Positions 11,081-38,168 of a DNA stretch of 38,168 nt are shown piece after piece. The notes under the pieces were generated by a model. It did not search any database. It saw nothing but the letters and a program-made list of their open reading frames with translations, and had not been told where the DNA came from. How positions within the stretch are numbered: the stretch's first letter is position 1; the number at the start of each line of letters is the position of its first letter. Made by a program: the position numbers and the translations under genes. This DNA is from a virus (taxonomy: Duplodnaviria; Caudoviricetes), in IMG/VR virus record IMGVR_UViG_3300026125_000440, positions 1 to 38,168 of that record, one strand, 5' to 3'.

Positions 11081-11947
11081 ATGAACGCATCTGAATCCGA
11101 ATACTTGGACTTATTACATACAGTTTTAACACAAGGCGAACTACGGGATCAGGAACGAACAGGAGTAGGTACGAAATCCCTCTTTATGGCAAACCTCAAG
11201 TTTGACCTTAGTGAGGGATTTCCATTACTAACGACTAAACGAGTTCCATTCAAATCCGTACTAAGTGAACTACTATGGTTTATCGAAGGTAGTGACGATG
11301 AACGTAGACTAGCAGAAATACACTACGGACTCCCTAGGGAAGAACTAACAGACAAAACTACTATCTGGACAGCCAACGCAGACGCACAAGGTAAGGATCT
11401 AGGTTATGAGAACACTGATTGGGTTAAACTCTTAGGACCCGTCTATGGCGTCCAGTGGCGCAACTGGGACGGGGTAGACCAACTCGCCGAACTTGTACAC
11501 AATTTAAAGAATAACCCACAGTCTCGTAGACATTTATTATCCGCATGGAATGTAGGCGAACTAAAGAATATGGCTCTGCCACCATGTCATACATTCTCGC
11601 AATTTTATGTTGACAACGATGGTAGACTACACAGTAGTTTGTATCAACGTTCTGCGGATCTATTTCTAGGAGTACCATTCAATATTGCTTCATATGCTCT
11701 ATTAACTCATATCCTAGCGCAAGTATGTGATTATGGTGTAGGTACATTTACTCACGTTATAGGCGATGCTCACATCTATAATAACCACGTTGACGCAATT
11801 AAAGAACAACTTAAAAGAGAACCAAGAAAGTATCCAAAACTTTCTATCAACTATCAAGTTAAAGACATTGATGGTTTTACTATGGATGATTTTGTTCTCG
11901 CAGATTACAACTCGTACCCAACTATTAAAGCACCAATGGCAGTATAA
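11081..11947 (+). CDS. thyA: Thymidylate synthase
   Basis: RTGVGT, FPLLTTK, ELLWF, GPVYGVQWR, SRRHLLSAWN, MALPPCH, YQRSADLFLGVPFNIASY, GDAHIY, KAPMAV. Confidence 0.97.
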   Translation: MNASESEYLDLLHTVLTQGELRDQERTGVGTKSLFMANLKFDLSEGFPLLTTKRVPFKSVLSELLWFIEGSDDERRLAEIHYGLPREELTDKTTIWTANADAQGKDLGYENTDWVKLLGPVYGVQWRNWDGVDQLAELVHNLKNNPQSRRHLLSAWNVGELKNMALPPCHTFSQFYVDNDGRLHSSLYQRSADLFLGVPFNIASYALLTHILAQVCDYGVGTFTHVIGDAHIYNNHVDAIKEQLKREPRKYPKLSINYQVKDIDGFTMDDFVLADYNSYPTIKAPMAV

Positions 11948-12510
11948 TGAAAGTAATCATTAGCGGTAACAACCATTCGGGATTAAGTGGCGCTCTAGGC
12001 GCCATTATTCCCAATATGACATTTTGTAGCAGAGAAACAGATTTTGAACTTACAAGTGCAAATGACCAAAGACGCTTTGCTAAACTAGCAACAGAATACG
12101 ATGTGGTTATTATTTGTTCTGCATTATGGAAATTTCAACAAACTGTATTACTGGACGAAGTACACAAAGCATGTACAGAAGCAAACGTTGCGCCACATAT
12201 TGTTTGTATCGGTAGTACCACAGATAGAGTCAACAATGGGCGTACATGGCGATACAATGCTGAGAAAAAAGCATTGCGTGATTACTCTAATACGTGCGCT
12301 ATCCAAGGTGTATGGACTGATAATAAACCGAAAGTAAGTTATATAAGTTTTGGCACGTTAAGTAACAACCAACATAAGCATCCTGATCGCAAATGTCTTG
12401 ACATAGGTCACGCCGCAGAGTATATCAAATGGTTAATAGACCAACCAAAACATATAAATATTAATGAAATTAGCATAGACCCGATGCAAGGAGACTCTTG
12501 GCATGAGTGA
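11947..12510 (+). CDS. Short, atypical SDR/Rossmann-fold oxidoreductase
   Basis: VIISGNNHSGLSG N-terminus, IVCIGS, YNAEK (YxxxK); TAATG-coupled to thyA. Confidence 0.7.
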   Translation: MKVIISGNNHSGLSGALGAIIPNMTFCSRETDFELTSANDQRRFAKLATEYDVVIICSALWKFQQTVLLDEVHKACTEANVAPHIVCIGSTTDRVNNGRTWRYNAEKKALRDYSNTCAIQGVWTDNKPKVSYISFGTLSNNQHKHPDRKCLDIGHAAEYIKWLIDQPKHININEISIDPMQGDSWHE

Positions 12511-12590
12511 TAAATACATTTAGCGAGGGGTTACAGGACGGCAATCCTAGAAACCCCTCTAACATAAGCAAACTGTTAAGGAGAATGCAA
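12509..12590 (+). promoter_or_regulatory. Late-type box plus structured leader of the GIY-YIG gene
   Basis: GATAAATA 12509-12516; gaggggtt (12525-12532) pairs with aacccctc (12552-12559), inner agga/tcct stem; AAGGAG 12578-12583. Confidence 0.7.
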
Positions 12591-13163
12591 ATGTCTAAAT
12601 GTATTTATATTGTATATAAAACCATAAATCTTGTCAATAGCAAATTTTACATAGGAAAACACAAACAAGAATCACATGATTTCGATGGTTACTTGGGTAG
12701 CGGAAATTTAATCAACGAAGCGATAGAAAAATACGGAAGGGAAAACTTCATAAGAGAAACATTATCTGTACACGAAGACGAATATGAATGTTATCTCGCC
12801 GAAGAAAAAGCAATAGGCGATTTATGGAAATATCGTAATGATTGTTATAACTTAGCACCTGGCGGAGACTGCGGAATGGGTGAAACAAAGCAACTATGGT
12901 GGGATGAAAATTTTAAAAAGAAAGAGGAGTTGAGTATTGCTTGGAAAGAAAATAACCCGTCAAAAACACCCGAGGGTAGACGCAGAATAAAAGAATCCAA
13001 TAAAAGAAGAATTTGGACTGAAGAAGCAAAAGAGAAATGTGGAGGCCCACATAGAGGTAAACCAAAAACTAAAAAGGTATGTCCATATTGCGACAGGCCA
13101 ATAGCCATAAATATGTACGAAAGATATCACAACAAAAATTGTAAGGAGTATTATGGAAAATAA
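12591..13163 (+). mobile_element. Free-standing Seg-like GIY-YIG homing endonuclease gene
   Basis: IYIVYKTINLVNSKFYIGKH, YLGSG, KYGRENF, YNLAPGG; basic C-terminus with CPYC..H..C; ATG 12591 has an RBS. Confidence 0.88.
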
Positions 13164-14574
13164 AAAAAGAGAATGGTCATCATATGACTTTACTAAAATC
13201 CCGTATGATGATTTGGTGCGTGTAGGCCAACGAACGATGTTATATAGAGATATGTTCACGGTCAGTTGGCTTCTTGCCAGATTCTGTAACTACAAATGTT
13301 CGTAAATACATTGCGACCTCATATAGCAATATATGTTGAATAACTCCTTTAATTGCTGGGAACTCCCTCAGGGACAATCAGCAGCCAAGCCCGAAAGGGA
13401 AGGTTCAACGACTAGGCGAAAGCCGTACACTCAAGCGAGTGGAAATGGGGAGCATCCTACTGGGATGAAGATATAGTCTGAACTACATGGCAACATGTAG
13501 CAGTTCATAAGAGAACGGATCAAGGAGTAGCGCACTTGATTGAACATATTTGATTGTTGGCCATATGCCCGCAGTGACCGTAAGGACCATAGACCCACAG
13601 AACTATGTTTGAGGACAATAGATGAAATTAAAAAACAAGCGCGTGCCCGCGGATTTAATAGTTTCCATTTCAGTCTTAGTGGTGGTGAGCCTACTTTTCA
13701 TCCTGGATATTTGGATATCATGGAGCACTTGGCTCTTGATGTAGACAATACAAATTATACGTCGGTACACATGACAACTAATATGTCCCGCAATATGAAA
13801 TGGCATGAAACATACGTGAAACATGCTTCTAAATTTCATAGGGCAAGTATTACGGCGAGTTTACATACTGAACATGTAAACACTCGTGAAAAGATGCAGG
13901 ATTTTGCTGACAAACTTATATTTTGTCAAGAACATGATGTACAAGTAACAATCAATCAGGTTATGGTACCCGAATGGTTTGAACGTGATTGGGATAATGC
14001 TATGTTCTTCCATGAACAAGGCATAAACGTCACTCTTAAGCCACAGAGCGACCCTACAGCGAGTTTTGTTGTAGACGGGTATACACCCGAAATGTTAGAA
14101 AGACTTCACAATGGTATGCCTCAGTTAGCATACACTGAAGAAAAAGCAAACAAGGCAAAGTTAGTTACTCGTCCCGAACCTACATTCACTAAAACAAGTG
14201 ATCCTATATGGTGGGATGAATTTGCCGACATACCAAAATCGTATCAAGTAGAGTTCCGCGATAGTGAAGGTAAGTATTGGTGGATGGATCAAGCGGAACG
14301 TTTTAATGCATTCAACTTTAACAAGTTTAATGGATGGGAGTGTAGCAGTGGATACAGAAGTATTATTATTCGCGAGCCTGATGGTTCTGTTAAGCGTAGT
14401 TATTCTTGTGAGGACCAGCCTCTGGGTAACATTGAAACAGGCTTTCAACTATTCGATGAGCCAAAAGTATGTATCAGCAAAAATTGCGTTAGTAGCGCAG
14501 ACAGTAAGATACCGAAACGAGCGCCGGGAACAAAATTGCCACTCTGGCCCGGTGACGAAACCTTTAAAAGATAA
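13153..14574 (+). CDS. Intron-split radical SAM protein: join(13153..13303,13553..14574), 390 aa
   Basis: Exon 1 MENKKREWSSYDF...RFCNYKCS(T) with AAGGAG RBS; joining T13303 to AT13553-13554 gives CNYKCSYCWP; exon 2 has SGGEP, TTN and C-terminal Cys-rich C..C..C..C. Confidence 0.92.
13304..13552 (+). ncRNA. Group I self-splicing intron (IA2-like), 249 nt, no ORF
   Basis: 5' exon ends in U paired to G in P1 (UCGU|AA...UUGCGA); P AATTGCTGGGAA 13351-13362; Q AATCAGCAG 13376-13384; R GTTCAACGACTA 13403-13414; S AAGATATAGTCT 13468-13479; P7.1/P7.2, P8, P9 hairpins; terminal G13552. Confidence 0.95.
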
Positions 14575-14598
14575 ATAGTAGTAAATTAAAGGAGTAAC

Positions 14599-15315
14599 AT
14601 GATACCATTAAAACCTTGGACAATACTGATTGCGCAAATTATAGCGCACCTGTCTATCATACCACTTATCATCTACGGTGAGTTATGGATGTGGGCAGTT
14701 GTACTATTTGTATACTTTCTAAACGGCTGTTTAGGTATGACGATGACATATCATCGTTTGCTTAGTCACAGAAGTTGGAACGCGCCAAAGTGGATAGAAT
14801 ATTTATTTACATTGTTCGCCACAATCGGTTTGACCGGTAGCGCAATTGCTTGGGTGGCAGTCCATAGAGAACATCATAAACATACCGATACAGACAAAGA
14901 CCCACATTCACCCACATTCAAAGGATTTTTGTGGGCGCATTGGTTGAGCATGTTCGCCAAAGTTAAACCCAGATATGTTACTGACTTGATACGAGATAAA
15001 TTCTTTGTTGTCCAACATAAACACTACTTTGATATTAACATAGCATACGGTATTGTGTTATACTTAATAGATCCTATGGCAGTATTATACGCATGGTTAG
15101 TTCCTGCTATGATACTATGGAACGCAGGTTCAGCAATAATTTCTATAAGTCATAGACATACCAAACCCAGCAATGATTTGATATTGGCATTAACAACGTG
15201 GGGTGAAGGCTACCATACTGTACACCATGAGCATCCGGGAAAAAATAGATTTGGCAAATTTGATTTTGCGGGTTGGTTAATTCAGCATATAGGCACGAAG
15301 AATGATACACATTAA
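14599..15315 (+). CDS. Membrane fatty-acid desaturase (delta-9/DesC-like)
   Basis: His boxes HRLLSH, HREHH...DPHSP, GEGYHTVHH; TM segments; GATAAATA 14570-14577 and AAGGAG upstream. Confidence 0.92.
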   Translation: MIPLKPWTILIAQIIAHLSIIPLIIYGELWMWAVVLFVYFLNGCLGMTMTYHRLLSHRSWNAPKWIEYLFTLFATIGLTGSAIAWVAVHREHHKHTDTDKDPHSPTFKGFLWAHWLSMFAKVKPRYVTDLIRDKFFVVQHKHYFDINIAYGIVLYLIDPMAVLYAWLVPAMILWNAGSAIISISHRHTKPSNDLILALTTWGEGYHTVHHEHPGKNRFGKFDFAGWLIQHIGTKNDTH

Positions 15316-15877
15316 AAGTATTATACACGACAATGAATACATGGAAGAAGTTGGCAGACTTGCCGCCGAACATCATCCTGAAAACTTTGGCAACTTTAGT
15401 AAACGTATAAAAAATTATGTTGACTTCTTTATATGCGAACATAACAGTAACATAGTTGCTATCTCCGGTATATACAAATGTCCATCGTGGCCTGATAATC
15501 ATTACCGTGTGGGCGATAGAAGTTTCTATTTCCCAGAATTTAGAACAAAGGGATTGAACTATTTGTTACCTGAATCGCAAAAGGATATTAGAAACCTATG
15601 CTCAACTCAACTTATTCCAAAACAAATTGAAATAGTGTGTCAGATGGGTGGGATACCGTTTTACAGTATGTTGAATCATCCCAACGCATTACAACGTTCT
15701 GTAAACTTGCTAAATACAACATTAGAAGAAGATAAACACTTTATTATGCTAGAGGACTTATACTATACGTGTCCTGACCCAGAAAGAGCGTCAGACCGTT
15801 GCTGGCAGAATATTGCTGTTATGGCTTCGAAAAAACAAGAATTTAATTTAACGAGTAGAAAAAACAATGGCGCTTAA
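15302..15877 (+). CDS. Hypothetical protein, possibly GNAT-fold acyltransferase
   Basis: IVAISG...RSFYFPEFRTKGL resembles GNAT motif A; weak. Confidence 0.45.
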   Translation: MIHIKSIIHDNEYMEEVGRLAAEHHPENFGNFSKRIKNYVDFFICEHNSNIVAISGIYKCPSWPDNHYRVGDRSFYFPEFRTKGLNYLLPESQKDIRNLCSTQLIPKQIEIVCQMGGIPFYSMLNHPNALQRSVNLLNTTLEEDKHFIMLEDLYYTCPDPERASDRCWQNIAVMASKKQEFNLTSRKNNGA

Positions 15878-16451
15878 ACGAAGACATGAATTGCCAAACT
15901 TTAAAAAGTTAGATGGTATACAAATATATACTGAAAGATTGCTTGAATGTTTCAAACAATGGGAGCATTATCCTGACTCCATCAGTGTACATTGCGGCAC
16001 GCCGTATCTGAATGAATTGTACCTACAAACTCCAGTGACTACCACTAAAGAAACGGTAATACTCAAAAACGGCATGGAAGATGAAAGAACGTACGGCGAA
16101 CTACTACCTGAATTCAAAGGAACGTATGTAGAAGAAGTACTTAACATGTTTAAGTCCCCGTACACACGAGTTAGATTAGTAGTCAAAAAACCTGGTGCGT
16201 TAATAATGCCGCACATAGACTACGATACAACATATAGCATGAGGTACTACATTCCATTACAAACCAATGAATGGTCATTCACCTCAGTTAAAAGTAAAAA
16301 TGATGACCATCCGGAAGTTAGACACTTACCCGCAGATGGCGGCGTATGGTTCGTAAATCCTGGTAACTTACACGGTGCTTGGAATTTAGGCAAGTCGGAC
16401 GACATACGCTTAATATTGGCAGTGAACGGTCAAGATGATATAGGAGATTAA
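15867..16451 (+). CDS. Fe(II)/2OG oxygenase, Asp/Asn beta-hydroxylase-like
   Basis: RVRL..PGALIMPHID...RYYIPLQTN...HGAWN....RLIL. Confidence 0.85.
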   Translation: MALKRRHELPNFKKLDGIQIYTERLLECFKQWEHYPDSISVHCGTPYLNELYLQTPVTTTKETVILKNGMEDERTYGELLPEFKGTYVEEVLNMFKSPYTRVRLVVKKPGALIMPHIDYDTTYSMRYYIPLQTNEWSFTSVKSKNDDHPEVRHLPADGGVWFVNPGNLHGAWNLGKSDDIRLILAVNGQDDIGD

Positions 16452-16452: not shown

Positions 16453-17301
16453 ATGAGTGATAAAGTAATGGGTAACGGATACCTATACCGAACAGAACCA
16501 TGGGAAGATATATTCGCCAACCCTAAAGAAGAAGTAGTTTATTCAATGGATGATATCGTTAGTGTTAACTGGGGCAAAGATGAATACCCAGTTAACCCAG
16601 CATTAAGAAAAATTAATGCTACATTTAACGACATTCATGCCCAAGTATGGGAAGACTTAAAAGAACACCGTGATACTATACTACAGTTTAGAAAAACGTA
16701 TTACCAAAAGACTGATAGGTTTATCATAGTCTACCCTAGCGGAGACAACCATCGTGTTAAAAATGTTGCTCCTCCAAGATATGTATCTATTATGAATTAC
16801 AATAATGATATGTTTGGTAACGTTGGTTTAACTACGATGCTACACCCGCCAACAGGAACATGGATGTACTTACATGAGGACAAACCCAGGTCACCTGCTA
16901 TCGAGGAACTAATATCACGTATTGTTAAGGAAGTAATTCCAGAGCATGAGCAAGACCCTGAGATATTCAATCAAAAGTACAAGATTGAATCCGCACTATC
17001 ATTTAAAGGCCCTGGATGTTTGTTGAACAGACATTGTGACCATGATGATGATAATGGTTATGTACGATACCACGCAATTCTAAATACACATGACAAGAAC
17101 TATATGGTCACAGGCAATACACCAGCAGACGATTATATTGTTGCTCCACAAGTGGGTGAAATTTGGGGTTTTGATGTATCGAAACCTCATTGGGCAGGCA
17201 ATGATGCTCAGGAAGAAAAAGAAGAGTTGCTTTCATGGCATCTTATCATTGATGTACTAGAGAATTCACGTTACCAGCAAGGAAATAGAAACATCAAATG
17301 A
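16453..17301 (+). CDS. Fe(II)/2OG oxygenase-like protein with N-terminal extension
   Basis: GPGCLLNRHCD...RYHAIL...GEIWGFDVSKPHWAGN...HLIID. Confidence 0.7.
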   Translation: MSDKVMGNGYLYRTEPWEDIFANPKEEVVYSMDDIVSVNWGKDEYPVNPALRKINATFNDIHAQVWEDLKEHRDTILQFRKTYYQKTDRFIIVYPSGDNHRVKNVAPPRYVSIMNYNNDMFGNVGLTTMLHPPTGTWMYLHEDKPRSPAIEELISRIVKEVIPEHEQDPEIFNQKYKIESALSFKGPGCLLNRHCDHDDDNGYVRYHAILNTHDKNYMVTGNTPADDYIVAPQVGEIWGFDVSKPHWAGNDAQEEKEELLSWHLIIDVLENSRYQQGNRNIK

Positions 17302-17795
17302 ACGAGTTTATGACTCACATACATTTTGATTATAACAAGGAAGCGTTATTGAAAGAATTTGATAACGCTAACCTTTCCGTTTATACACCTAGTAGAAAGA
17401 TTAACGAACAATCATGGTTCAATAAAACTGACACTTGGTTAACTGCGGTTGCCGATGAACAATCATCTGAAATGTATAGAATAAAATGTATGTTAGAAGA
17501 CACATTCAATGAACCGGTGACAGCAAAATTCTTTCTATTAAAAGAAAATGAACATATACCTCCGCATAAAGATATGGGTCATAGAGTATGTATAAACATA
17601 GTATTATCCAACGATGCTGCCCCAGTGAAATTTAAAGATGGACCAGAAGAATCTTACGAGTGTGCAATGTTAAATGTTTTTAAACGACACGAAGTACTAC
17701 CCGGACCAGAAAGAAAAATGGTGAAGTTTCAAATAGGCGAGAACCTATTCTATAGAGACGCACTACAAATATGGGAAAACGGTACTAATGTATGA
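17298..17795 (+). CDS. Fe(II)/2OG oxygenase-like (cupin) protein
   Basis: IPPHKD...CINIVL...LNVFKRHEV....RKMVKF. Confidence 0.65.
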   Translation: MNEFMTHIHFDYNKEALLKEFDNANLSVYTPSRKINEQSWFNKTDTWLTAVADEQSSEMYRIKCMLEDTFNEPVTAKFFLLKENEHIPPHKDMGHRVCINIVLSNDAAPVKFKDGPEESYECAMLNVFKRHEVLPGPERKMVKFQIGENLFYRDALQIWENGTNV

Positions 17796-19239
17796 TATAC
17801 TACTTATTGCTATCCCAATAGGACGTACTGATACACGTCCTTTGCCTGCCATATTCCATCTAAAGTCATATCTTGAACTTCACGGTAAAACTGTAAAGTG
17901 CATCGAATGCCACAACCTAACAGATGGCGGAAACCCAGAGTTATTTGATAGGATGTATGAAGCAATCGAACCAGAAAAGGATAATGCCCCGTGGATTGGT
18001 ATATCGTTGCTCACTGACTACCAGGTGTCATTGGGCCTAGAAGTAGTCAGACGTTTAAATTTAGACCCAAATCGTATTATATGGGGTGGCCCCGGCACAT
18101 CACTTATTAACGAAAAATTACAACGCAAAGAGATAGATGCGGTTGATAACTTCAAGCATGTAATCTATGGTGAGGGCGAAATTGCCCTACTTGAATTTTT
18201 AAATGGTAATCTAGAGTATCCGGGCATCAATAGTGACCCTGTACAAATAGATGATTTGAATTCGTTACCTCCACCAGATTACGGTGATATCAATGTACCA
18301 ATGATTGCGTTAACTGGTTCTCGTGGTTGTGTGCGCAAATGTAAATTCTGTAATGTGCCATCTATATGGAAAAAGTATAGATATGTTGATGGTACAATTT
18401 TAGCAGAAAATGCTATTTCAGTAATACAAAAGAATCCGTATACTTCACACATAGCGTTCTCAGATTCGCTTATCAATGGTTCAGAACGTGAATTCCGTAA
18501 GATGTGTACTAGATTGAAAGAGCATAACTTATCCGAAGATGTAAAGTCAGGTAAACTTTCTCCTGTCACATGGGAAGCCCAATATATAGCACGTAGAGTA
18601 ACGGTAGACCATTATCAATTAGTAGTTGACTCAGGTTGTACTATGTTGAAAATAGGCATAGAATCTGGCTCAGAAAGATTACGTAATGAAATGGCAAAGA
18701 AATTCAATGACGAAGCAATGTATAATACATTGTTTGGATTTCTAAAAACTGACCCTCATATCAAACTAGTTCTTATGATAGTAGTAGGTTATCCGCAAGA
18801 AACAGAAGAAGATTTTGAAAAAACACTTGACTTCATGGACAGACTTAGTTACTATAACACTAGAATTAAAATGTCCCCTACCCTTATGTCCATCATACCG
18901 GGGACTCCTGTAGCAACGGAACATCCAGAGTTAATAGAAAATATAGAGTCGCACAACTTCAAAGACTACACGTTTGTAAATGAAAATGGAGATATAAGAA
19001 GTCGCGTAAAACGTCTCATAAAAATGGAAACTATGATTAAATATCATAAATACTGTTACGATATATCCATCGCAACACGCAAGGATTATTTCTTGTTTGA
19101 TGTACTCAAAGAGTTAGATGTTGATTACATGGATATATACAAAGAAGCAATTGACGATTTGATATCTTCCGGACGTTTACCAGATGATATCGAAGATATT
19201 TATGAGAATGAACTACCGTGGCCTGAGTTTCTATGGTAG
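17788..19239 (+). CDS. Cobalamin-binding radical SAM enzyme (class B methyltransferase-like)
   Basis: N-terminal B12-like domain (IGIS, IIWGG, GEGE); SRGCVRKCKFC; FSDSLING; IGIESGS; IVVGYPQETEEDF. Confidence 0.9.
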   Translation: MYDILLIAIPIGRTDTRPLPAIFHLKSYLELHGKTVKCIECHNLTDGGNPELFDRMYEAIEPEKDNAPWIGISLLTDYQVSLGLEVVRRLNLDPNRIIWGGPGTSLINEKLQRKEIDAVDNFKHVIYGEGEIALLEFLNGNLEYPGINSDPVQIDDLNSLPPPDYGDINVPMIALTGSRGCVRKCKFCNVPSIWKKYRYVDGTILAENAISVIQKNPYTSHIAFSDSLINGSEREFRKMCTRLKEHNLSEDVKSGKLSPVTWEAQYIARRVTVDHYQLVVDSGCTMLKIGIESGSERLRNEMAKKFNDEAMYNTLFGFLKTDPHIKLVLMIVVGYPQETEEDFEKTLDFMDRLSYYNTRIKMSPTLMSIIPGTPVATEHPELIENIESHNFKDYTFVNENGDIRSRVKRLIKMETMIKYHKYCYDISIATRKDYFLFDVLKELDVDYMDIYKEAIDDLISSGRLPDDIEDIYENELPWPEFLW

Positions 19240-19258: not shown

Positions 19259-19573
19259 ATGTATATACAACAACTTAGATTTACACGCGCAGACGTATCA
19301 TCATTAGGAATCGATGGTACGATAGAGGCTATCAATGCCGCGGCAAACCCAGAAATGCAAATACAATATCAGGCAATATTAGAAAGACACCTTGATGAAA
19401 ATCTTTATGTTTCACACACTATACAAAACAACACGTATATTGTAACTAGACACTGGAATTCCCAAGAAGAGTGTGAGTCATTTTTTGCGGCGTTGGGCAC
19501 TGTCGGACAAAGGTTGCGCCAAAGCATTGAAGGGACAGGATTCAAACTTGAGCAATTCTTCACTACCGTATAA
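19259..19573 (+). CDS. Small hypothetical protein
   Basis: AAGGAG 19243-19248 then ATG 19259 (MYIQQLRF...). Confidence 0.65.
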   Translation: MYIQQLRFTRADVSSLGIDGTIEAINAAANPEMQIQYQAILERHLDENLYVSHTIQNNTYIVTRHWNSQEECESFFAALGTVGQRLRQSIEGTGFKLEQFFTTV

Positions 19574-29779: not shown

Positions 29780-30951
29780 TGGATATACCAAGCAAAACGT
29801 TCTGCTCTATGGCATGGGACCACCAGTTCATTGACCCTACCGGTCGTGTGAAACCATGCTGTAGATTCGCAGAAAGACATAGACCAAACGAAAACAACTT
29901 AAACAATAAAACACTAAGCGAAGTCTTTTACGGTGACTGGATGAATGATGTTCGGGAACGTATGATGGATGGTCGTGAAGTAGAAGGTTGTATACGTTGT
30001 TACCAAGAAGAAGCCGCAGGTAAACGTAGTCTTAGACAACGTTACCACGACAACAAAACACTACCCATTGACGAACTCGTAGACATAGACAATCCTAAAA
30101 TTCGTTGGATTGAACTTGCTATTAGTAATGACTGCAACTTAGCATGTCGCATGTGTGATAGTCGTTACGCATGGAAATGGTTTGAAGAAGAGAAAGCAAT
30201 CTACGGTAAAACATGGAACACAGTCAAGAAAAGTAAAAGCGATATAGCAAACATATATCCTTTTATTAACGACTTAGTTCACATTAAGTTTACCGGAGGT
30301 GAACCTCTTATTACTCCAGACCATTGGGTATTAGTGGACAAACTACTTGCGGAACGAGATTGTAGTGAAATATTCTTGAACTATAGCACAAACTGTACAA
30401 TAATGCCTAAAGATAGTTGGGTAGATAAATGGAATCAGTTTAAGACTGTAGAGTTTGCACTAAGTTTTGATAGTTGTGATCCGGCAGAATCAGAGTATAT
30501 TCGCTGGCCTGCTAAGTATGAAACAACAGAAGCAGTAACCAAACGTTTCTTAGAACTTAAGAAAGAACATGGTTGGAATGTGTTGTTGCGTAGTACTATT
30601 AGTATATTCAACTTATGGTATATGCCACAAAACTTAGAATGGTGGGAGGAGCACGATACTTCGGGTAATGTTGTAATGAATCCAACACATTTAACATACC
30701 CAGAAATCATGTGTGTTACTGTACTACCGGAGCATATCAAGAAACGTGTAACTGAGCGATTTGAAGAACATATGAAAACATGTTCTCCGAAAGCATATGG
30801 AGCACTAGATTATATCAAAAACTTTATGAATAGTAAAGATGATAGTCATCTACTACCTGAACTTAAAAAGTACATAGAAGGCACTGATAAGTTTAGAGGG
30901 CAAAATTTCTTTGAAAGTTACCCTCACTTCTCCGATATTTTCACTAAGTAA
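29779..30951 (+). CDS. Radical SAM protein with N-terminal twitch domain
   Basis: FCSMAW..PCC..CIRC; CNLACRMC; FTGGEP; YSTN. Confidence 0.92.
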   Translation: MDIPSKTFCSMAWDHQFIDPTGRVKPCCRFAERHRPNENNLNNKTLSEVFYGDWMNDVRERMMDGREVEGCIRCYQEEAAGKRSLRQRYHDNKTLPIDELVDIDNPKIRWIELAISNDCNLACRMCDSRYAWKWFEEEKAIYGKTWNTVKKSKSDIANIYPFINDLVHIKFTGGEPLITPDHWVLVDKLLAERDCSEIFLNYSTNCTIMPKDSWVDKWNQFKTVEFALSFDSCDPAESEYIRWPAKYETTEAVTKRFLELKKEHGWNVLLRSTISIFNLWYMPQNLEWWEEHDTSGNVVMNPTHLTYPEIMCVTVLPEHIKKRVTERFEEHMKTCSPKAYGALDYIKNFMNSKDDSHLLPELKKYIEGTDKFRGQNFFESYPHFSDIFTK

Positions 30952-33596
30952 TCGTAAAACTCGGGATTGACTTTTGATAAGTCAGTCCCGTGTTGTTTAT
31001 CAAACCAATCAAATAAATCTTTATATTGGTATAAATCGGTAGTAACTGCGGCAGGACGTTTTATACTATTAGCAATTTCATGCAATTTGTTTATCAGTGG
31101 ATGATATTGTTCTTCTGTATAGTTTTCCTTTAAATACGTAGTTACATCTTCTATATGATATAGAAATGATTCGTCTAACATATTAGTTTCTAATCCGTTA
31201 CTGCCTATAATTCTCATACGAAATGATATGTTTGTATTACCATACTCTTCTATTAGTGATTTAACGTAACGATACATTGGTAACATGCCTGCTACGGATA
31301 CATTAGTAGTAACATTCCAAAACTCTATCTCATGGTCGAAATTTATTTTTCCTGTATCAGAATGTGTATATTGAGACATTAGATATCGTAAATTATTATC
31401 GAATAATTGAAAATCACATCCGGTATGTAAGTAATTATACATATCACCGGAACCAGACATTTTAATTTGAAATACTACATGTAACAGTTCATATTTTTCC
31501 TTATATGCTTTTACATAATCTAACACATCCTTCAATCGGTCCAATGATACATTCAAATTAGTTTTTATATCAACTCGTAGTGAACGGTAACGTAGTTTAT
31601 TGTGCTCATAAAATGTATCACATATAATACCTAAATGATCCTCTTCTATAATATTAGGCAATACTTCTCCGCCATAAATACCCAAACATGCTCCTAGAGT
31701 ATGGTCTTCTGCTATTTGTTTGACCATATCTTTTATAATTTTTACTCGGTCTTCAAATGGTTTTGGGTCGATGTGTTTTAAATCTTCGGTGAAGTGTTGT
31801 AATTTACTAGGAAGAGTTTCGGTTTCAGCAATGTGTTGCCAGGTAGAACTTTCTTTAGGTTTACACCATAAACATGCGGCATCACAATCATTAGATATAA
31901 TTAACCCGGTATGTGTATTACCGTTGTATGGCATTACCCAATCCATATTACGATTTAATCGGTGCGAAGTACCTAGAGTACTTTCGTTTACTCTACACAC
32001 CTTACAAAAATCTATTTTCTCACCTGATACTATTCGCTTTCTGATATTGGTTAATTGTTCTACTGAAGTAACTTCATCCTTACCAAATAATGAAACTTCA
32101 CACGGTCTTAAGTCACCAGTAACACCATCGTAGTACATTGAACGGGATGCTTCTAAACAGTATGCTCCTATTTCTTCTGTAGTGGGTTCGTGTGTTTCTA
32201 CTTTGTGGTATACTCTTTCGCCGGGAGTATCAATCAACCAATTCTGCTTAGGTAATGCGAACATAGAACTTTCTATAGTGTCAGTACCATCTAATATAGG
32301 CAACAATTCGGGAATAGAAGATTTCCAATCTAAACGTCTAACATCATCAAAGTAATCTAAACGATCACGTAACATCTTCAACAGTGTTGTCTCAGGTTCA
32401 ATTACTTCTAATTCGTTCTGAAGCCCATATAATCTATTTAAAAAGTCAAACCAATTGCCATACTCTCCAGGTTTGCCATAACTTTCTACTGTGCTCATCC
32501 AATGGCGAGTATTACGTATAGCATTACGAATGTATTTCACCCCATACTTACCGAGTACGGTAGGCGACATAACTTTAGGTATTGATACTTGATTATAATG
32601 CAATCCTATGTGTTTGTCGTATTTTAATACAACGTCTTTAGCCCATAGTATAAAGTCTGATATTCCGGTAACATTCATAGACGACATAGTTACCATAAAG
32701 CCTAGTTTAACGTTATTGTTATCCTTAACTGCTTGGATTAATTTGTGTACGTTTGATTCAAACAAATCCCATTCTAAGTTGGTTCTAATATACTCCGCTC
32801 GTTTGTATATATCATCCATACTTATTAATACTTCTAAGCGTTGATTGCTTGTAAGTTTAGGTATAGAATCTAAAAACTTTGTGTAGTAATTATCAGGTAT
32901 GTTTAAATTGGTAATGATACATAATTTGTAGTCGGACTCTGGGTTAGCATTTTTATTCAAATGTTCTACCAATGTATAAAACTCTGGCATAATTAAAGGT
33001 TCGCCGCCCTTTATGTTAATAGTCTCTAGCGTTTTACTCGCTGTATTACGAAACCATTCCCAAAATAATTCATCGAACTTTTCGCTAGTCTTTGTTTTAT
33101 ACGATTCGTAATGTTCTTTAGTTATACGCCCTTGCTTGTACTCTTCTAACGCCCATTGACTACTATTATCAGGGCCACAATATACACATTTTAAATTACA
33201 ATGGTTACCCATAATAATTTCTAATAACTCTGGTCTAGACGCATGTGTTATATGAGTATCTGATTCCTTTACAATTTGATTGTCTTTGTATTCAACACCA
33301 ATGGATTTAAAATGTTCCTGAAATGTACCGTGGTCTGCTTGGCGTTTACTTACTGCCCCAACATTTTCTTTATCCCAACACTGCTGACAATCTCGGTTCT
33401 GTAAACCGTTCAGTGTGTCAATGCGTCTTTGAACGAGTCGATTATTGTTCATAAATACATCGGTTCCCAAAGAATCCATTTCATTGTCACTGAATGGTTT
33501 ATTTCCACGTTCAGGCAGGCAACACATACCCGCGTTAAGTGTTGATAAATCAACTACCGAGTATGTCCAATTATGTTTACATCCTAAATTTTTCAC
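30924..33596 (-). CDS. Tandem double radical SAM fusion (890 aa)
   Basis: Module 1: CKHNW..CC..CQQC, CNLKCVYC, KGGEP. Module 2: CLEA..PC..CKVC, CDAACLWC, YGGE, KTNL. Confidence 0.88.
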   Translation of the reverse strand: MKNLGCKHNWTYSVVDLSTLNAGMCCLPERGNKPFSDNEMDSLGTDVFMNNNRLVQRRIDTLNGLQNRDCQQCWDKENVGAVSKRQADHGTFQEHFKSIGVEYKDNQIVKESDTHITHASRPELLEIIMGNHCNLKCVYCGPDNSSQWALEEYKQGRITKEHYESYKTKTSEKFDELFWEWFRNTASKTLETINIKGGEPLIMPEFYTLVEHLNKNANPESDYKLCIITNLNIPDNYYTKFLDSIPKLTSNQRLEVLISMDDIYKRAEYIRTNLEWDLFESNVHKLIQAVKDNNNVKLGFMVTMSSMNVTGISDFILWAKDVVLKYDKHIGLHYNQVSIPKVMSPTVLGKYGVKYIRNAIRNTRHWMSTVESYGKPGEYGNWFDFLNRLYGLQNELEVIEPETTLLKMLRDRLDYFDDVRRLDWKSSIPELLPILDGTDTIESSMFALPKQNWLIDTPGERVYHKVETHEPTTEEIGAYCLEASRSMYYDGVTGDLRPCEVSLFGKDEVTSVEQLTNIRKRIVSGEKIDFCKVCRVNESTLGTSHRLNRNMDWVMPYNGNTHTGLIISNDCDAACLWCKPKESSTWQHIAETETLPSKLQHFTEDLKHIDPKPFEDRVKIIKDMVKQIAEDHTLGACLGIYGGEVLPNIIEEDHLGIICDTFYEHNKLRYRSLRVDIKTNLNVSLDRLKDVLDYVKAYKEKYELLHVVFQIKMSGSGDMYNYLHTGCDFQLFDNNLRYLMSQYTHSDTGKINFDHEIEFWNVTTNVSVAGMLPMYRYVKSLIEEYGNTNISFRMRIIGSNGLETNMLDESFLYHIEDVTTYLKENYTEEQYHPLINKLHEIANSIKRPAAVTTDLYQYKDLFDWFDKQHGTDLSKVNPEFYDYLVKISEK

Positions 33597-34882
33597 TCGC
33601 TGTCTTCCGTTAGTATTTTATATAATATCGGATTTACATCTTGTACTTTTAGTCCTCGACTTCTTTCTATCCAGTCAAAATATAGTTTTCCTTTACGAAT
33701 AGTATCTGGGAATTTAAACTTGCCTAAAATTTCACGACTATTATTCAACTGTTCATATACTTTGTCTGCTATTCTCGGATCCATGTGGTGATGATATTTC
33801 CTAACGACCTCTTCGATTTCATCAAACACATAATTGTACTCGTCAGGCGGATAAACCCCAACGGACAAGAATTGTGGGAATGTAATAGGATTAAATGCCG
33901 GAGTAAATGATGTATTGTGTTTTATTGCCTGTTGAAAAGCATACTCCAATACATTTACTGTATCGAACAAAGATACTGCTGAGATAGTTAAACATAAACC
34001 AGTTGTTAATCTGAGTCTTCCACTAGATCCTGCTTCCATCCACATTTCAAAGTTTCGTTTAATCGTTTCCCACTTGGCTCCGTATCGAACAAACTCCGCA
34101 TTAGGGCCTGTACTTTCTACACTAATATGAATTTGTATTCTCAAGTTTGGATATGTATTTCTGAAATTGGCCAACTTATCTATGGTACTATGCATTATGT
34201 TTTCTGGTGTGTTACCATTTGTAACTATGATAATTCCAACGTTACTTTCCGGATCTGCGTATTTGAATACTGCCTCAATAACTTCTGATACTATATCTTT
34301 CTTTATAGTGGATGTTAGTAATGGTTCACCTCCTAAGAACACTATTTCGTACCCATGATGTGCTTTAGCGTTTCTGCCCATTTCTTCACATTGTTGCAAT
34401 ATCATTTGTTTGTGGTGGGCACGTTGCTCTGCCGTTTTCGTGACAGCAAGCGGCTTTTCAGCATCATTAATACTGTTTGCCAACACATTTCGGTCTTCCA
34501 AACTAGAATTCTGTATAGTCTGTTGCCATTTTGAACTATACTTAGGGCCGCAGTAGATACATTCTAAATCACATGTATTGTCAACATATATCTCCATTGT
34601 ATAGTAGTTGGCGGCTCGCGCGTTTCCAATGTGTCTCCACGACTCTAAACCTTTGTCTTCTAGAAACCAACAATAATTGCAATGATTATTGCGAACACCA
34701 TTGTTTAAATCATCACGTACTTTTTGTATTGCCTCAGATCCTTTTTCGAACGTGTCATATACTACCGGGCGTTGTGATTTACAGCACAAATGAACTTCTA
34801 ACTTTTCACTAAATGAGCGCATTATTAATTCGGTATCTGCTCTGTGGCAAAATGTATCTTTCTTATCTTTCTTATCTGTCAT
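33593..34882 (-). CDS. Radical SAM protein with N-terminal twitch-like domain
   Basis: FCHRA..LCC..CNYC; DNTCDLECIYC; LGGEP; TNGN. Confidence 0.9.
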   Translation of the reverse strand: MTDKKDKKDTFCHRADTELIMRSFSEKLEVHLCCKSQRPVVYDTFEKGSEAIQKVRDDLNNGVRNNHCNYCWFLEDKGLESWRHIGNARAANYYTMEIYVDNTCDLECIYCGPKYSSKWQQTIQNSSLEDRNVLANSINDAEKPLAVTKTAEQRAHHKQMILQQCEEMGRNAKAHHGYEIVFLGGEPLLTSTIKKDIVSEVIEAVFKYADPESNVGIIIVTNGNTPENIMHSTIDKLANFRNTYPNLRIQIHISVESTGPNAEFVRYGAKWETIKRNFEMWMEAGSSGRLRLTTGLCLTISAVSLFDTVNVLEYAFQQAIKHNTSFTPAFNPITFPQFLSVGVYPPDEYNYVFDEIEEVVRKYHHHMDPRIADKVYEQLNNSREILGKFKFPDTIRKGKLYFDWIERSRGLKVQDVNPILYKILTEDSE

Positions 34883-36116
34883 TATCTCTGTCCAATCTTT
34901 TATAGTACTCGTATATCTGAGGATTTACATCTTGTATATTTATCCCTCTAATATCCAATAAGTAATCAAAAAACTTTAGCCCTTGTTTAGCGTACATTTT
35001 TTTTCTTTCGTAGTCAAACTGACCTATTAAATCCCTAGCAGTTTTGATATTATCATTAATAAGTATACTGTCGTTTATTAAACTAGTATTGTCTTGAATG
35101 ACAGCGTTCACTTCATCCATTACCGATTTCTTTTCGTCTGGCAACATACATGTACTTAAATATTCAGGATGTTTTACTGTATTTAAGTCTAGACCTATTT
35201 GAATATTTTCGTTACTAGCAATATGAAACACATCGTTTAGTAAATCCACAGTGCCATCAAGTGATATGGCATTTACACTCATTCGTATATTCACAAATAT
35301 ATCATTAATCATATACTTTGACATATTTTTTAAAAAACGCTGATAATCAAGTCCATCACGTACAAACTCTGCGTTTTTACCCGAACTTTCTACACTTAAC
35401 ACAACCATGACTTCGACATTAGGGTATTCTTTTTTTACATTGTGTAATGACTCGATAGTATCATCAATGATATTATCGGGTGTATTACCGTTAGACACTA
35501 CACATACCCGTAATGGTTTATTCGGTACTGTTCCTCGGTAAAACGCTTCAATCACATCCTGAACAATACCATTCTTAAAGTACCGTGTCATTAACGGTTC
35601 TCCGCCAAGTAATGTTATAGTGTTTCGTATCGTGTTAGACTTCGTAGCAAAGTCTGTAACTTTTTCTAATATCAACTCGGTATGATTTAAAACATGGTTT
35701 GATTCTTCATATGTGTCTAGTATGCTGATATATTTTTCTTTTTGGTCTCTAGTAAGTGACCGTTGTTCGCTTTCCCATCTAGAACTATACATGGGACTAC
35801 AGTAGATACATTTTAAATCGCATGTGTTATCTACATATAACTCCATATAAGCATAATCAAATGGTATATTATTACCTACTTCTCTCCACGATGTGACATT
35901 GTTTTCTTCATCTTCCTTACAATGTCTACAATGAGAATTCCATATTCCATTTTCTAAATCTTTACGTACATTATCCAGAGCACCATCATACGATACATCA
36001 ACGGAGTCTGCGGCAGTACAACACAAGGATCCTCTGACAGTAGATCCAAATGACCTAAGTATTAGTTCATTATTCGCACGGGCACATTTTATGGGACCGC
36101 CGAACTTACTTTCCAT
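34872..36116 (-). CDS. Radical SAM protein, close paralog of 33593-34882
   Basis: CARA..LCC..CRHC; DNTCDLKCIYC; LGGEP; SNGN; ATG 36116 with GGAG RBS. Confidence 0.9.
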   Translation of the reverse strand: MESKFGGPIKCARANNELILRSFGSTVRGSLCCTAADSVDVSYDGALDNVRKDLENGIWNSHCRHCKEDEENNVTSWREVGNNIPFDYAYMELYVDNTCDLKCIYCSPMYSSRWESEQRSLTRDQKEKYISILDTYEESNHVLNHTELILEKVTDFATKSNTIRNTITLLGGEPLMTRYFKNGIVQDVIEAFYRGTVPNKPLRVCVVSNGNTPDNIIDDTIESLHNVKKEYPNVEVMVVLSVESSGKNAEFVRDGLDYQRFLKNMSKYMINDIFVNIRMSVNAISLDGTVDLLNDVFHIASNENIQIGLDLNTVKHPEYLSTCMLPDEKKSVMDEVNAVIQDNTSLINDSILINDNIKTARDLIGQFDYERKKMYAKQGLKFFDYLLDIRGINIQDVNPQIYEYYKRLDRDNDR

Positions 36117-37461
36117 ATTTCTCTCCGTGTAACAACTCCCAGGTTTTAGGACATACATCTTGTAACTTTTCTTTACGTACCTCGTCTAATTTATTAGTGT
36201 GGTACCAAAACTTTGGTAATTCTTCACTATAATCTTCGCTGTTCATATAGTTAACATATGTATCTAAAATCTTACAAAAATGTTTGTAGTTTAACTCTTC
36301 TGGTATTTCATCTTTTGCTTTAATCTTCCACTCTTCAAAGTAATTGGTAATCCATTCTTTACTTTCTTTAGGGAATATTTTAATATTCAAAAACTTTGGA
36401 TTATGTAGTGGGTGCGGACTAATTACACTCTTATGCTTAACATGTTTATTAATACGCTTGAAATTCTGCTTTATCTTCCACATCATAATGTCCGGCAACT
36501 GTACTAAGTTATACACCATAATAGTCGCCGCCCACCATACCATAAATGAACCTTCAGCATCATCTAATTTACGCATGTTCTCTTCTACTTTATACCACTT
36601 ACTAGGATTGCGTATATAGTCATTTAGAGGTCCTACAGCATCGACTGAGAACCCTATTTGTACTCGCTTAAAGTGCTTCCATATATCCCAAGAACGTTGA
36701 GGTATGTTCGTTATGTTTGTATTATATTCTACTACAATTTCACTTGCTCTGCCCGCATCAATACACTTTTGTAAGAACTCATAGTGTTGGTCAATCATTA
36801 GCGGTTCACCACCTACAATGTATAAGCGTTCCACTTCGGGTATCTTCGACTCCATATCTGCCCAAAACTCTGGCTTATCATACCAACTGTATGGGTCAAC
36901 TTCGGGCTGATATTTGCCCTTATTGTTAAGCACAAGATTGATTTGTTTACCACTATCTTTATAACTCTTACCCCACAATGCTACTGTATCATCGTACCAT
37001 TGACTTGAATCTGTAGGTCCACACATGCGGCATTTTAAGTTACACAAGTTTCCAAATCGTAAATCCATATAGTACATAGGTGTTTCTTCTACATCTATAG
37101 TACCATCAAGTTGTGTAATTTCACGGGCGCGAGTTTCATCTAACTTTTCATCCCATATCTCTCGTTCCCAATCAGCACGACTTTGCATACCTGATTCTGC
37201 TTCACGCTTACAACGGATACAAGCATCGTGATATTCACCATTCAACATTGACACACGTATTTCTTTCATCAGTGGAGCATTGCGGTAATCATCTATTTTA
37301 TCTACGCCTAGATTGTATAGTGAACCGTCGCCTTTAGGTATTAAACCTTGCGTCTTGGATACGTTGGCATTACAACATACTCGTACATCACCGTTGTTTC
37401 GTACATTCAATCCCATCCACGGTAACGGGCACCATGGGTTTGTTTTTGGTTTATCACTCAT
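36106..37461 (-). CDS. Radical SAM protein with N-terminal twitch domain, paralog of 27399-28814
   Basis: WCPLPW..VCC..CIRC; DLRFGNLCNLKCRMC; VGGEP; YNTN. Confidence 0.92.
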   Translation of the reverse strand: MSDKPKTNPWCPLPWMGLNVRNNGDVRVCCNANVSKTQGLIPKGDGSLYNLGVDKIDDYRNAPLMKEIRVSMLNGEYHDACIRCKREAESGMQSRADWEREIWDEKLDETRAREITQLDGTIDVEETPMYYMDLRFGNLCNLKCRMCGPTDSSQWYDDTVALWGKSYKDSGKQINLVLNNKGKYQPEVDPYSWYDKPEFWADMESKIPEVERLYIVGGEPLMIDQHYEFLQKCIDAGRASEIVVEYNTNITNIPQRSWDIWKHFKRVQIGFSVDAVGPLNDYIRNPSKWYKVEENMRKLDDAEGSFMVWWAATIMVYNLVQLPDIMMWKIKQNFKRINKHVKHKSVISPHPLHNPKFLNIKIFPKESKEWITNYFEEWKIKAKDEIPEELNYKHFCKILDTYVNYMNSEDYSEELPKFWYHTNKLDEVRKEKLQDVCPKTWELLHGEKYGK

Positions 37462-38168
37462 TTCAATTCTTCACTTTTAATATTCTTGCCATGACCACTA
37501 CTAAACTCAAACTTATCACCGCATGTTCTACCACACGTATAGATACGTTTAAACTTATCATCACGGTTATCCCATGAACGTTCTAAATAATCAGTGTAAT
37601 ATTCATGGTTTAATACGTCCCAACCATGTTGTCTCATATCGTTAAAGTCTTCACCGTATAACGAAAAGAAGTGTTCAAAACTAGCAGTCTGTGGTGTTTT
37701 AGCATTAAAGTATTTAGGGGCGCCCATCCAACAACATGGCCACAACCTCATACACATATCAACAAATACTGTTTTATCTCGCTTGTATTTACACGTTATA
37801 GGTGCGTTCTCTACATATTCATCAAAACTTGAAAACTTCTTACGTATATCAATCTTATCCCGAGTATTTTGATTTTCTTTCTCTTCTACTACCGTTCCTT
37901 TACGGGTCTCTAATGATTTTTGATCCTGTTCTGCAAAGCGGGCAGTATATTTTGCAGTGAACTTAGAAAATCCCATTTTCTTTGCTAATGCTTCTGCTTC
38001 TTCAATTTGTGTATAGTTATGTTTAAATTCTATATATGCCCATTCAGCAATGCCACCTGCATCTATAAATGCCTGTGCGTTCTCTATTATCTTTTCAAAG
38101 TTAGAACCCACTCGGTATATGTGATTAGTATCGCTTAACCCGTCAACCGAGAATATAACATTTAATCT
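37458..38168 (-). CDS. Partial radical SAM protein (5' part outside the window), paralog of 24643-25779
   Basis: Frame stays open to the window edge: RLNVIFSVDGLSDTNHIYRVG...; FKHN, TARF, PCC, CGRTCG align with 24643-25779; CxxxCxxC not visible. Confidence 0.8.
   Translation of the reverse strand, partial: RLNVIFSVDGLSDTNHIYRVGSNFEKIIENAQAFIDAGGIAEWAYIEFKHNYTQIEEAEALAKKMGFSKFTAKYTARFAEQDQKSLETRKGTVVEEKENQNTRDKIDIRKKFSSFDEYVENAPITCKYKRDKTVFVDMCMRLWPCCWMGAPKYFNAKTPQTASFEHFFSLYGEDFNDMRQHGWDVLNHEYYTDYLERSWDNRDDKFKRIYTCGRTCGDKFEFSSGHGKNIKSEELK

Follow-up and report, generated by a model that had tools for sequence, protein, structure and literature searches.

We analyzed positions 1–38,168 of the virus record IMGVR_UViG_3300026125_000440, a single 38,168-nt record referred to here as the window, in which 27 genes at 11947–38168 encode mostly radical S-adenosylmethionine (rSAM) enzymes and their partners. 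This 26-kb block is the distal part of a two-armed island. One arm consists of N-twitch rSAMs linked to glycosyltransferases (GTs), and the left part of the island (desaturase, GNAT, hydroxylases, B12-binding rSAM and ABM-like protein) is a second, mobile cassette. The system is real, widespread and uncharacterized, and it does not appear to be a member of the RiPP (peptides made on ribosomes and modified after translation), QueC or known DNA-glycosylation systems. With roughly even confidence, we propose that the island builds and edits an unusual glycan, possibly acylated, that probably decorates tail or fibre proteins. New in this work are the explanation of the missing GTs by truncation, an intron inside the iron-sulfur motif of the rSAM gene RS7, the two-arm anatomy, and the recognition of cultured carriers together with an island-free control.

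The preliminary description of this DNA had proposed an uncharacterized, multi-step modification system of viral origin. The contig is indeed a virus record, and our results support such a system. The phage falls in the neighbourhood of PA5oct, Atu_ph07, SCTP-2 and Phosso, and may also be described as a jumbo phage related to PA5oct, SCTP-2 and RsoM2USA; the 98-aa product of gene 1994–2290 is 71% identical to a gene of Sinorhizobium phage Phosso and has matches in 15 records of PA5oct-like, Atu_ph07 and SCTP-2 jumbo phages.

The right edge and the island in relatives

The preliminary description found no glycosyltransferase. This is correct within the window, but the GTs are missing because the window ends inside the island, and a relative continues into them. 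A search with the exact 29-mer of the right edge recovered one metagenome contig (L203) that is 100% identical over 10,029 nt and runs 1,839 nt further; among viral contigs the same pattern gave no match. In the added stretch the edge gene reaches its full 354 aa, and two new genes appear, one methyltransferase-like (308 aa) and the other a further, partial rSAM of family RS1; the rSAM genes shown for this phage thereby number 14, including 13 in the window. L203 is collinear with a related locus, L084, at 88.8% over 2,672 columns. Together with the adjoining 20 kb of the record that contains it (G001, L098), L084 reads outward as methyltransferase-like gene, GT-A, carbamoyltransferase, DUF6071, FG-GAP propeller (45% identical to window gene 6407–7648), UDP-glucose dehydrogenase, rSAM, GT-A, two GT8-like genes and tail genes, the last including a 2,933-aa protein. 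Extrapolated to this phage, the first GT would lie 3–5 kb and the GT8 pair 15–17 kb past the edge; the predicted island is about 43 kb long, holds about 15 rSAM genes and borders on the tail operon. The label methyltransferase-like is based on motifs recognized by eye and weak spermine-synthase matches (a SAM-binding fold) in 2 of 23 members; a profile comparison with an island methyltransferase gave no match, and neither the GT-A nor the methyltransferase-like alignment found anything when its profile was searched against the PDB. At 37420–38168, a piece that is a separate contig, depth halves in all three sequencing runs, which suggests strain variation at the edge gene. The contigs from these three DNA runs, which may themselves be the source, showed no loose ends and yielded no readable extension; no RNA run containing the sequence was listed.

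Related viral loci were the best 80 of 221 IMG/VR stretches matching gene 27399–28814 (best 80 at 72–84%). Clustering of their open reading frames (ORFs) revealed a recurring order of tail genes, two GT8 genes, two GT-A genes, a methyltransferase-like gene, a 75-aa protein and rSAMs, followed by a thyA-or-thyX/ATPase/VWA block that is the block left of the island in the window. The rSAM families RS1, RS2, RS5, RS3 and RS7 vary in number and order between loci. In 72 of the 80 loci, or 44 of 48 groups at 95% anchor identity, a GT-A profile has a match no more than 10 kb from the core rSAM; no GT-A gene was found inside the flank in the other 8, and the window has no match. With an AlphaFold model of the GT-A protein (pLDDT 92), all top Foldseek ranks were GT-A transferases (RmlT, WrtF, ppGalNAc-T and the PBCV-1 capsid GT, E about 1e-4 to 1e-3); 3 of 31 family members match Glycos_transf_2 weakly, and the GT8-like profile matches glycogenin (E=9e-5). 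Two near-complete relatives have 14 and 20 PF04055 matches, and the island of G003 contains a DegT aminotransferase, a sugar C-methyltransferase, TylF and an epimerase. The synteny check across large phages that the preliminary description had suggested returned an island that is recurrent, tail-linked and GT-associated. The 75-aa protein is highly conserved and, in 49 of 80 loci (e.g. L019:7473–7700), is encoded between the methyltransferase-like gene and RS1; it occurs neither in L084 nor in the window and has no Pfam match.

Searched against 50,697 phage records, the queries for GT-A and GT8 match RsoM2USA only, and the core rSAM matches only RsoM2USA, two Vibrio phages and one single-virus record. 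RsoM2USA carries, in one direction, sheath, epimerase, tube-like and TF14 genes, two GT8, GT-A, N-twitch rSAM, GT-A and methyltransferase-like genes; its ORFs 356, 359 and 361 are virion proteins according to the accessible text of PMC8504454. Just after its GT operon (L083:26100–40675) stands an unannotated array of about 15 paralogous 190–220-aa genes with similar N-termini. In PA5oct the TF14 homologue is the last gene of the tail operon confirmed by mass spectrometry (MS) and no island follows; none of the GT-A, GT8 and N-twitch queries matched a PA5oct-like phage. In Vibrio phage K566 rSAMs alternate with GT8- and GT4-like genes, and the rSAM block of CP220, whose members are distant relatives of RS1 and RS5, adjoins two genes with nucleoside diphosphate (NDP)-sugar transferase domains. 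Pelagibacter phage Mosig EXVC030M (MT647606) carries a compact island, also with two arms, that is flanked by VrlC and fibre genes; five window genes (desaturase, two hydroxylases, nitroreductase and RS1) have homologues in it, and it includes GNAT, TauD, DegT, carbamoyltransferase and GT8-like genes as well. Three high-identity "cellular" matches (L107, L108 and L111) contain genes of the phage island, together with tail-operon homologues in L108, and we take them to be phage contigs that binning has placed in bacterial metagenome-assembled genomes; true cellular relatives show about 30% identity. Such misbinning may be the reason why family NF033640 looks bacterial.

Blocks rich in rSAM genes were already in print for phages (2010, 2017 and 2020), without a function. 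Campylobacter phages CP220 and CPt10 have 11 and 12 rSAM genes (PMC2853527), and the marine T4-like genome TARA_ERS488813_N000010 has 12 (PMC5332604), in both cases in swappable modules; in the accessible text of these reports they are read as host-metabolism or iron-sulfur genes and no link to glycans or tails is made. Similar in layout is the "host recognition cluster" of pelagimyophages and cyanomyophages, described in the available part of PMC7029224 as a variable island between structural genes with GTs, rSAM cassettes and fibres. These phages and Mosig differ in being T4-like, about 140–180 kb, with few rSAMs, whereas in the present phage a single island accounts for at least 14 rSAM genes. 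Our literature search, which covered sources other than subscription papers and supplements, found neither a function for the N-twitch rSAM family NF033640 nor an account of the island as a pathway. NF033640 is defined by sequence; here its members are part of a defined, tail-linked and GT-anchored island.

Freeman and co-workers reportedly described virion glycosylation in mycobacteriophages in 2023, and the accessible text of PMC12619734 cites such glycosylation. Like the mycobacteriophage and PBCV-1 capsid systems, the island combines virus-encoded GT-A enzymes and a methyltransferase partner with a link to structural genes, and the PBCV-1 capsid GT is among its fold matches. Phage GTs linked to structural genes occur in the relatives and cultured phages and not inside the window itself. 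To our knowledge, the mycobacteriophage and PBCV-1 systems comprise few GTs and have no large rSAM or oxygenase tailoring set.

Enzymes of the two arms

The 27 island genes comprise 13 rSAM, 6 oxygenase-like and 2 QueC-like genes and one each for a nitroreductase, an SDR-like (short-chain dehydrogenase/reductase) protein, a GNAT-fold protein, a desaturase, a GIY-YIG endonuclease and an ABM-barrel protein (Table 1). Most of this was anticipated by the preliminary description. Its 13 rSAM genes are confirmed, since the 12 motif-bearing genes match PF04055, as does the completed edge gene; the two QueC-like enzymes, the nitroreductase and the desaturase were recovered by Pfam search, and its approximately six hydroxylases correspond to six ORFs with an invariant HxD..H triad, 3 of which match PF05118. 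The SDR gave a weak match only, and the GNAT-like protein was recognized through the fold of its predicted structure. The claim that almost every gene encodes a modifying enzyme is not confirmed in this form, as the endonuclease and the ABM-barrel protein break the run. Its count of 13 motifs needs to be qualified, as 12 lie in 11 long ORFs and the thirteenth appears only after intron removal. The "partial paralogue" at the right edge is a cut gene, and its full form is an rSAM with its own motif.

Table 1. Features of the island, with positions in the window and supporting evidence
Feature	Position	Strand	Evidence
SDR-like oxidoreductase	11947..12510	+	weak NF038213 match, E=1.5e-4; family in 15/80 related loci and window
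Free-standing GIY-YIG homing endonuclease, mobile element	12507..13163	+	probable start 12591; PF19835, TIGR01453 E=4.6e-9, phrog_314 E=8e-35
ATAAATA late-type box	13107..13113	+	46 nt before RS7
RS7 rSAM, exon 1	13153..13303	+	ends within iron-sulfur motif; 81% identity to residues 7-48 of intact homologue
ORF-less group I intron, 249 nt	13304..13552	+	Rfam RF00028 100.9 bits, E=3e-25; within CxxxCxxC codons
RS7 rSAM, exon 2	13553..14574	+	PF04055 E=3e-6; 77% identity to intact homologue
Other island ATAAATA boxes	14571+, 28921+, 21866-, 22524-, 25811-, 34943-	both	sequence scan
Membrane di-iron fatty-acid desaturase	14599..15315	+	PF00487 E=9e-13; acyl-CoA desaturase structures E=4e-13; three invariant His boxes
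GNAT-fold acyltransferase-like protein	15302..15877	+	no Pfam match; predicted structure resembles GNAT clusters, TM about 0.6
AspH/Cpz10-type Fe(II)/2-oxoglutarate (2OG) oxygenase	15867..16451	+	PF05118 E=2.9e-6; HxD..H; 29% to Mosig_00072
AspH-like oxygenase	16453..17301	+	PF05118 E=0.0017, under cut-off; HxD..H
Small oxygenase-like protein	17298..17795	+	HxD..H; 30% to paralogue 19473-20045; no library match
B12-binding rSAM, predicted C-methylase	17788..19239	+	PF04055 and weak PF02310
ABM/dimeric alpha-beta-barrel protein, 104 aa	19259..19573	+	features and predicted structure, TM about 0.6
Small oxygenase-like protein, start uncertain	19473..20045	+	HxD..H
N-twitch-like rSAM	20029..21135	-	NF033640 148 bits (cut-off 170); 26-28% to 30924-36158 genes
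Oxygenase-like protein	21125..21826	-	HxD..H; 25% to Mosig_00081, annotated Asp_Arg_Hydrox
Nitroreductase-fold flavoprotein	21859..22497	-	PF00881 E=3e-10
AspH-family oxygenase	22562..23128	+	PF05118 E=2e-12; PDB 7v4f (Cpz10) E=3.3e-12
B12-binding rSAM	23129..24643	-	PF04055 E=4e-18, PF02310 E=1e-7
rSAM, core family RS1	24643..25779	-	PF04055; family in 80/80 related loci
rSAM, core family RS5	25808..26812	-	PF04055; family in 48/80 loci and window
QueC-like PP-loop protein, Zn-site cysteines	26764..27402	-	PF06508 22.3 bits, C-terminus only; TIGR00364 18.8 vs 150
N-twitch rSAM, core family RS2	27399..28814	-	NF033640 431 bits; sigma70-like promoter upstream; model pLDDT 86.5
Second QueC-like PP-loop protein	28973..29779	+	PF06508 23.8 bits, C-terminus only
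N-twitch rSAM, family RS3	29779..30951	+	NF033640 307.5 bits
Double rSAM fusion, 890 aa	30924..33596	-	NF033640 309 bits over two stretches; CxxxCxxC at residues 133 and 571
N-twitch-like rSAM	33593..34882	-	NF033640 155 bits; tandem paralogue of 34872-36158, 34.5% identity
N-twitch-like rSAM	34872..36158	-	NF033640 136.5 bits
N-twitch rSAM, family RS2	36106..37461	-	NF033640 364 bits
RS1 rSAM, 3' part of 354-aa protein	37458..38168	-	cut by window edge; full protein PF04055 E=4e-11, motif present

A six-frame scan found 16 CxxxCxxC strings, including 4 in non-coding frames. All 12 motif-bearing genes match PF04055 (Radical_SAM) at E<1e-5, 3 of them under the curated cut-off. The defining combination of the superfamily, CxxxCxxC on a partial TIM barrel, is represented by 12 intact motifs, one further motif after splicing in silico and an rSAM fold in the structural search. 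The NF033640 (N_Twi_rSAM) cut-off, 170 bits over the whole protein, is passed by 4 genes (27399–28814, 29779–30951, 30924–33596 and 36106–37461), and 3 others score 136–155. In 36 sequences the twitch cysteines C12, C93 and C96 are invariant and C30/C31 nearly so, with the SPASM match at the N-terminus. The double-rSAM fusion, the two tandem paralogues and a fourth relative 10 kb off (20029–21135) make up a lineage-specific expansion.

Among the companion enzymes, the HxD..H iron triad of AspH-type cupins is invariant in 6 of 6 oxygenase-like ORFs. The one oxygenase compared with the PDB, 22562–23128, has Cpz10 and a proline hydroxylase as its top solved matches, both small-molecule enzymes, and Cpz10 hydroxylates a nucleoside-amino acid intermediate (PMC9814697, accessible text). 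Both QueC-like translations contain the SGGxDS PP-loop and C-terminal Zn cysteines; against the QueC equivalog TIGR00364 one scores 18.8 bits (cut-off 150) and the other has no match, so neither is a canonical QueC. An acyl chain is the likely substrate of the desaturase, as its sequence keeps three His boxes and matches acyl-CoA desaturases; it is also the only one of the 27 island proteins with a strong hydrophobic segment. The ABM-like protein found no homologue besides itself at E<=0.001, and it was dismissed as a modification substrate since it has a barrel fold and is not precursor-like.

As a single query the desaturase found no viral locus. A search with an alignment gave at least 528 stretches, of which 80 were used together with four added loci; 83 have a called desaturase and form 39 groups at 90% identity, the clusters being approximate. 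Of these 39 groups, 21 have an AspH-like gene within three genes downstream and 10 a GNAT close by; the locus includes an rSAM in 17 groups and a B12-rSAM in 5. In L126–L128 an acyl carrier protein (ACP) gene precedes the desaturase; a Pfam search found no ACP in the window. In L092, L121 and L105 the desaturase/GNAT/hydroxylase arm has a tail-fibre-like gene of family c83 as its immediate neighbour, and the product of this gene is a candidate acceptor for that arm.

Product and acceptor

According to the glycan reading, GT8-like, GT-A and NDP-sugar enzymes, which are present in relatives, would assemble and attach a glycan in this phage. The N-twitch and twitch-type rSAM paralogues could then each edit one C-H position of a sugar by epimerization, oxidation or C-C chemistry, while methyl-, carbamoyl- and PP-loop enzymes would add groups. 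More conjecturally, the desaturase/GNAT/hydroxylase/B12-rSAM arm might make a desaturated, hydroxylated and methylated acyl group, which the GNAT would transfer, perhaps onto an amino sugar. Gain, loss and shuffling of paralogues would make the product differ from phage to phage, as happens with O-antigen loci. Glycan modification had been listed last in the preliminary description and is now the best-supported reading. Candidates for the decorated virion proteins are the products of 2646–3989 and the propeller of 6407–7648. In a more specific form, which we put forward tentatively and regard as less than probable, the island is a combinatorial surface-antigen factory of aquatic jumbo phages, in which N-twitch rSAMs are a new sugar-editing class joined by the desaturase/GNAT/hydroxylase/B12-methylase arm, the strain-specific, acylated and radical-edited tail-fibre glycan sets host range or shields the virion, and the RS7 intron in two lineages marks an indispensable step.

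The late-type boxes that the preliminary description saw in the cluster are well founded, and the link it drew to the virion is supported as likely. ATAAATA, which we take to be a late promoter from its use in T4 (TATAAATA), stands 12–61 nt upstream of 12 of 44 genes (80-nt search range), against about 0.9 expected and at most 5 for permuted 7-mers; the start coordinates of 2 of the 44 genes are off by a few bases, and neither has a box. Seven boxes are inside the island and five outside, the latter including those of the head gene of the virion-protein-like operon 2646–3989 and of the FG-GAP gene, and the box is common to virion-like and enzyme genes.

Several observations weigh against a tail glycan and call for caution. 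No glycosyltransferase is present in the window or in the 1.8-kb extension; for this phage one is predicted by extrapolation from a relative with 89% identity. The TM-scores of the GT-A model are only about 0.4. For the core rSAM 27399–28814 the best fold matches are near ties between BlsE, which acts on a sugar nucleoside (Z=12.1), SkfB (11.7), a sactipeptide maturase (11.3) and viperin (11.0), with GDGT-MAS also within Z 11–12, and Foldseek with its model places peptide maturases on top; the modeled fold does not discriminate between substrate classes. Late expression can be inferred only in part, because this gene has, by eye, a sigma70-like and not a late promoter, and because the available text of the PA5oct preprint reports TATAATA/TTGAC promoters and no TATAAATA class. 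The two arms may have separate products, as the desaturase arm also occurs without nearby GTs in the T4-like contig L117, where desaturase, GNAT, hydroxylase, B12-rSAM and ABM-like genes are found but the flank contains no GT, and as in G002 about 120 kb separate the B12-rSAM/nitroreductase block from the GT island. Finally, the accessible text of PMC7029224 reads the GTs of pelagimyophage islands as directed at host O-antigen or lipopolysaccharide (LPS), and that of PMC7824862 gives cyanophage GT clusters the same host-envelope reading.

The strongest rival, which we judge rather unlikely, keeps the glycan and acyl chemistry and moves the acceptor to the host envelope (LPS core, O-antigen, lipid A or an aminolipid), where it would block competing phages. 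GT8 enzymes are typical LPS-core transferases, and the membrane desaturase, GNAT and AspH-family genes recall lipid tailoring by LpxO, OlsB and OlsC. The ACP ahead of the desaturase in L126–L128 would fit as well, as would the cellular relatives near GT2 and sulfotransferase genes. However, the GT block follows tail genes of the MS-confirmed type in the same direction, late-type boxes suit assembly better than early exclusion, and apart from the desaturase no island protein has a strong hydrophobic segment, nor did the Pfam search find a flippase, polymerase or ligase in the window.

The preliminary description preferred direct modification of proteins or peptides by the rSAMs and hydroxylases, as virion hypermodification or a RiPP-like product. 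Its preference rested on two points: the absence of GTs, here explained by truncation, and the view that AspH-like enzymes act on proteins, which the one oxygenase compared with the PDB does not support, since Cpz10, the closest solved relative of 22562–23128, hydroxylates a small nucleoside. We now think this outcome improbable. It draws on the top Foldseek and profile matches of the N-twitch family (SkfB, sactipeptide maturase, anSME, SuiB and TigE), on the conserved 75-aa protein before RS1 and on an SbmA peptide transporter 10 kb off, but it leaves the tight GT linkage unexplained, and none of 45 window proteins has a PqqD/RRE (RiPP recognition element) Pfam match at the sequence level. 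Nor was a convincing precursor peptide ORF found: the genes abut or overlap, and the single 158-nt gap holds promoters and frames of 23–34 aa without a clear leader or core.

The product could also be a free small molecule (nucleoside-, aminocyclitol- or lipid-like) that serves as an antibiotic, a signal or an anti-defence agent. The mix of carbamoyltransferase, 2OG hydroxylases, B12 methylases and BlsE- or viperin-like rSAMs resembles the content of nucleoside and aminoglycoside antibiotic clusters, and Iyer et al. raise the free-metabolite option for cyanophage clusters in the accessible text of PMC7824862. Yet close relatives differ by reshuffled gene content, a pattern more in keeping with a diversified surface tag than with a single active compound, and adjacency to tail genes would have no explanation; we consider this, too, improbable.

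Hypermodification of DNA or tRNA, with glycosylated pyrimidines or 7-deazaguanines, appears very unlikely. It is suggested by the adjacent thyA, by the two QueC-like genes, by the FolE (4/5) and PTPS (3/5) that related records carry outside the islands examined, and by phage GT-A enzymes able to glycosylate 5-hydroxymethylcytosine (10.1101/2023.12.21.572611, accessible text); phage DNA-glycosylation clusters in that source (C5-methyltransferase, 5mYOX and GT) share the GT-A fold with the island. The island differs in that neither a C5-methyltransferase nor a hydroxymethylase-type ThyS paralogue was found in five related records (2 of them at least 90% complete), which served for all partner searches. 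In these, C5-methyltransferase (PF00145), tRNA-guanine transglycosylase (TGT), DpdA and canonical QueC were each found in 0/5, and there is at most one PF00303 match per record, at a canonical-like score. The ThyA of the window passes the canonical cut-off. A search for TET/JBP dioxygenases gave 0/5, with blank controls as well. The window itself has no FolE, QueD, QueE, DpdA or TGT, and relatives replace thyA by thyX at this flank.

Intron, flanking genes and implications

The gene of RS7, the best conserved of the rSAM families, is interrupted inside its iron-sulfur motif by a group I intron with U at the exon end, G at the intron end and a fold z of -3.3. Its removal in silico yields a 390-aa ORF with a motif that matches the intact homologues, so splicing is predicted. 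A second lineage has an intron of 76% identity at the same site, in five loci that are nearly identical to one another (L003–L006 and L070). By tblastn RS7 comprises 51 sequences including the window, with no match in cultured phages, and the L089 copy is split at another site. A GIY-YIG gene lies directly upstream of the intron-bearing gene (12507–13552), and a related endonuclease stands just before the RS2 gene in L016. A free-standing endonuclease next to an ORF-less intron is the layout expected for collaborative homing. The intron points to the RS7 family as a likely key step.

To the left of the island, 5236–6357 and 7758–9083 encode a pair, a MoxR-type AAA ATPase and a DUF2201 metallopeptidase-VWA protein, that is conserved beside the island across the clade. 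The FG-GAP propeller at 6407–7648, of which a paralogue lies inside the L084 island, resembles in its N-terminus the three small minus-strand genes at 2646–3989; two of these match phrog_3758 ("virion structural protein") and one has a 72-nt tandem repeat. Gene 941–1963 encodes an SbmA/BacA-family peptide transporter found in 44 viral loci, most at 64–78% identity, and was rejected as an island member since it is a clade-wide feature conserved outside the island. Upstream of it, 73–930 encodes a membrane-anchored protein with ClpP/crotonase-like motifs by eye, no confident library match and an ATAAATA box upstream. Repeats in the window were not kept as a separate feature, being explained by paralogous genes and FG-GAP blades, and no tRNA or tmRNA genes were found in the window.

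In conclusion, large aquatic phages devote 25–55 kb and 14–20 iron-sulfur enzymes per genome to this island. Its role can be approached in cultured phages, as Mosig has both arms, RsoM2USA has a minimal GT-rSAM core and PA5oct has the tail operon without the island. If the glycan reading is true, NF033640 would gain a substrate class, a large pool of radical sugar chemistry would become apparent, and virion glycosylation would be common in environmental phages.

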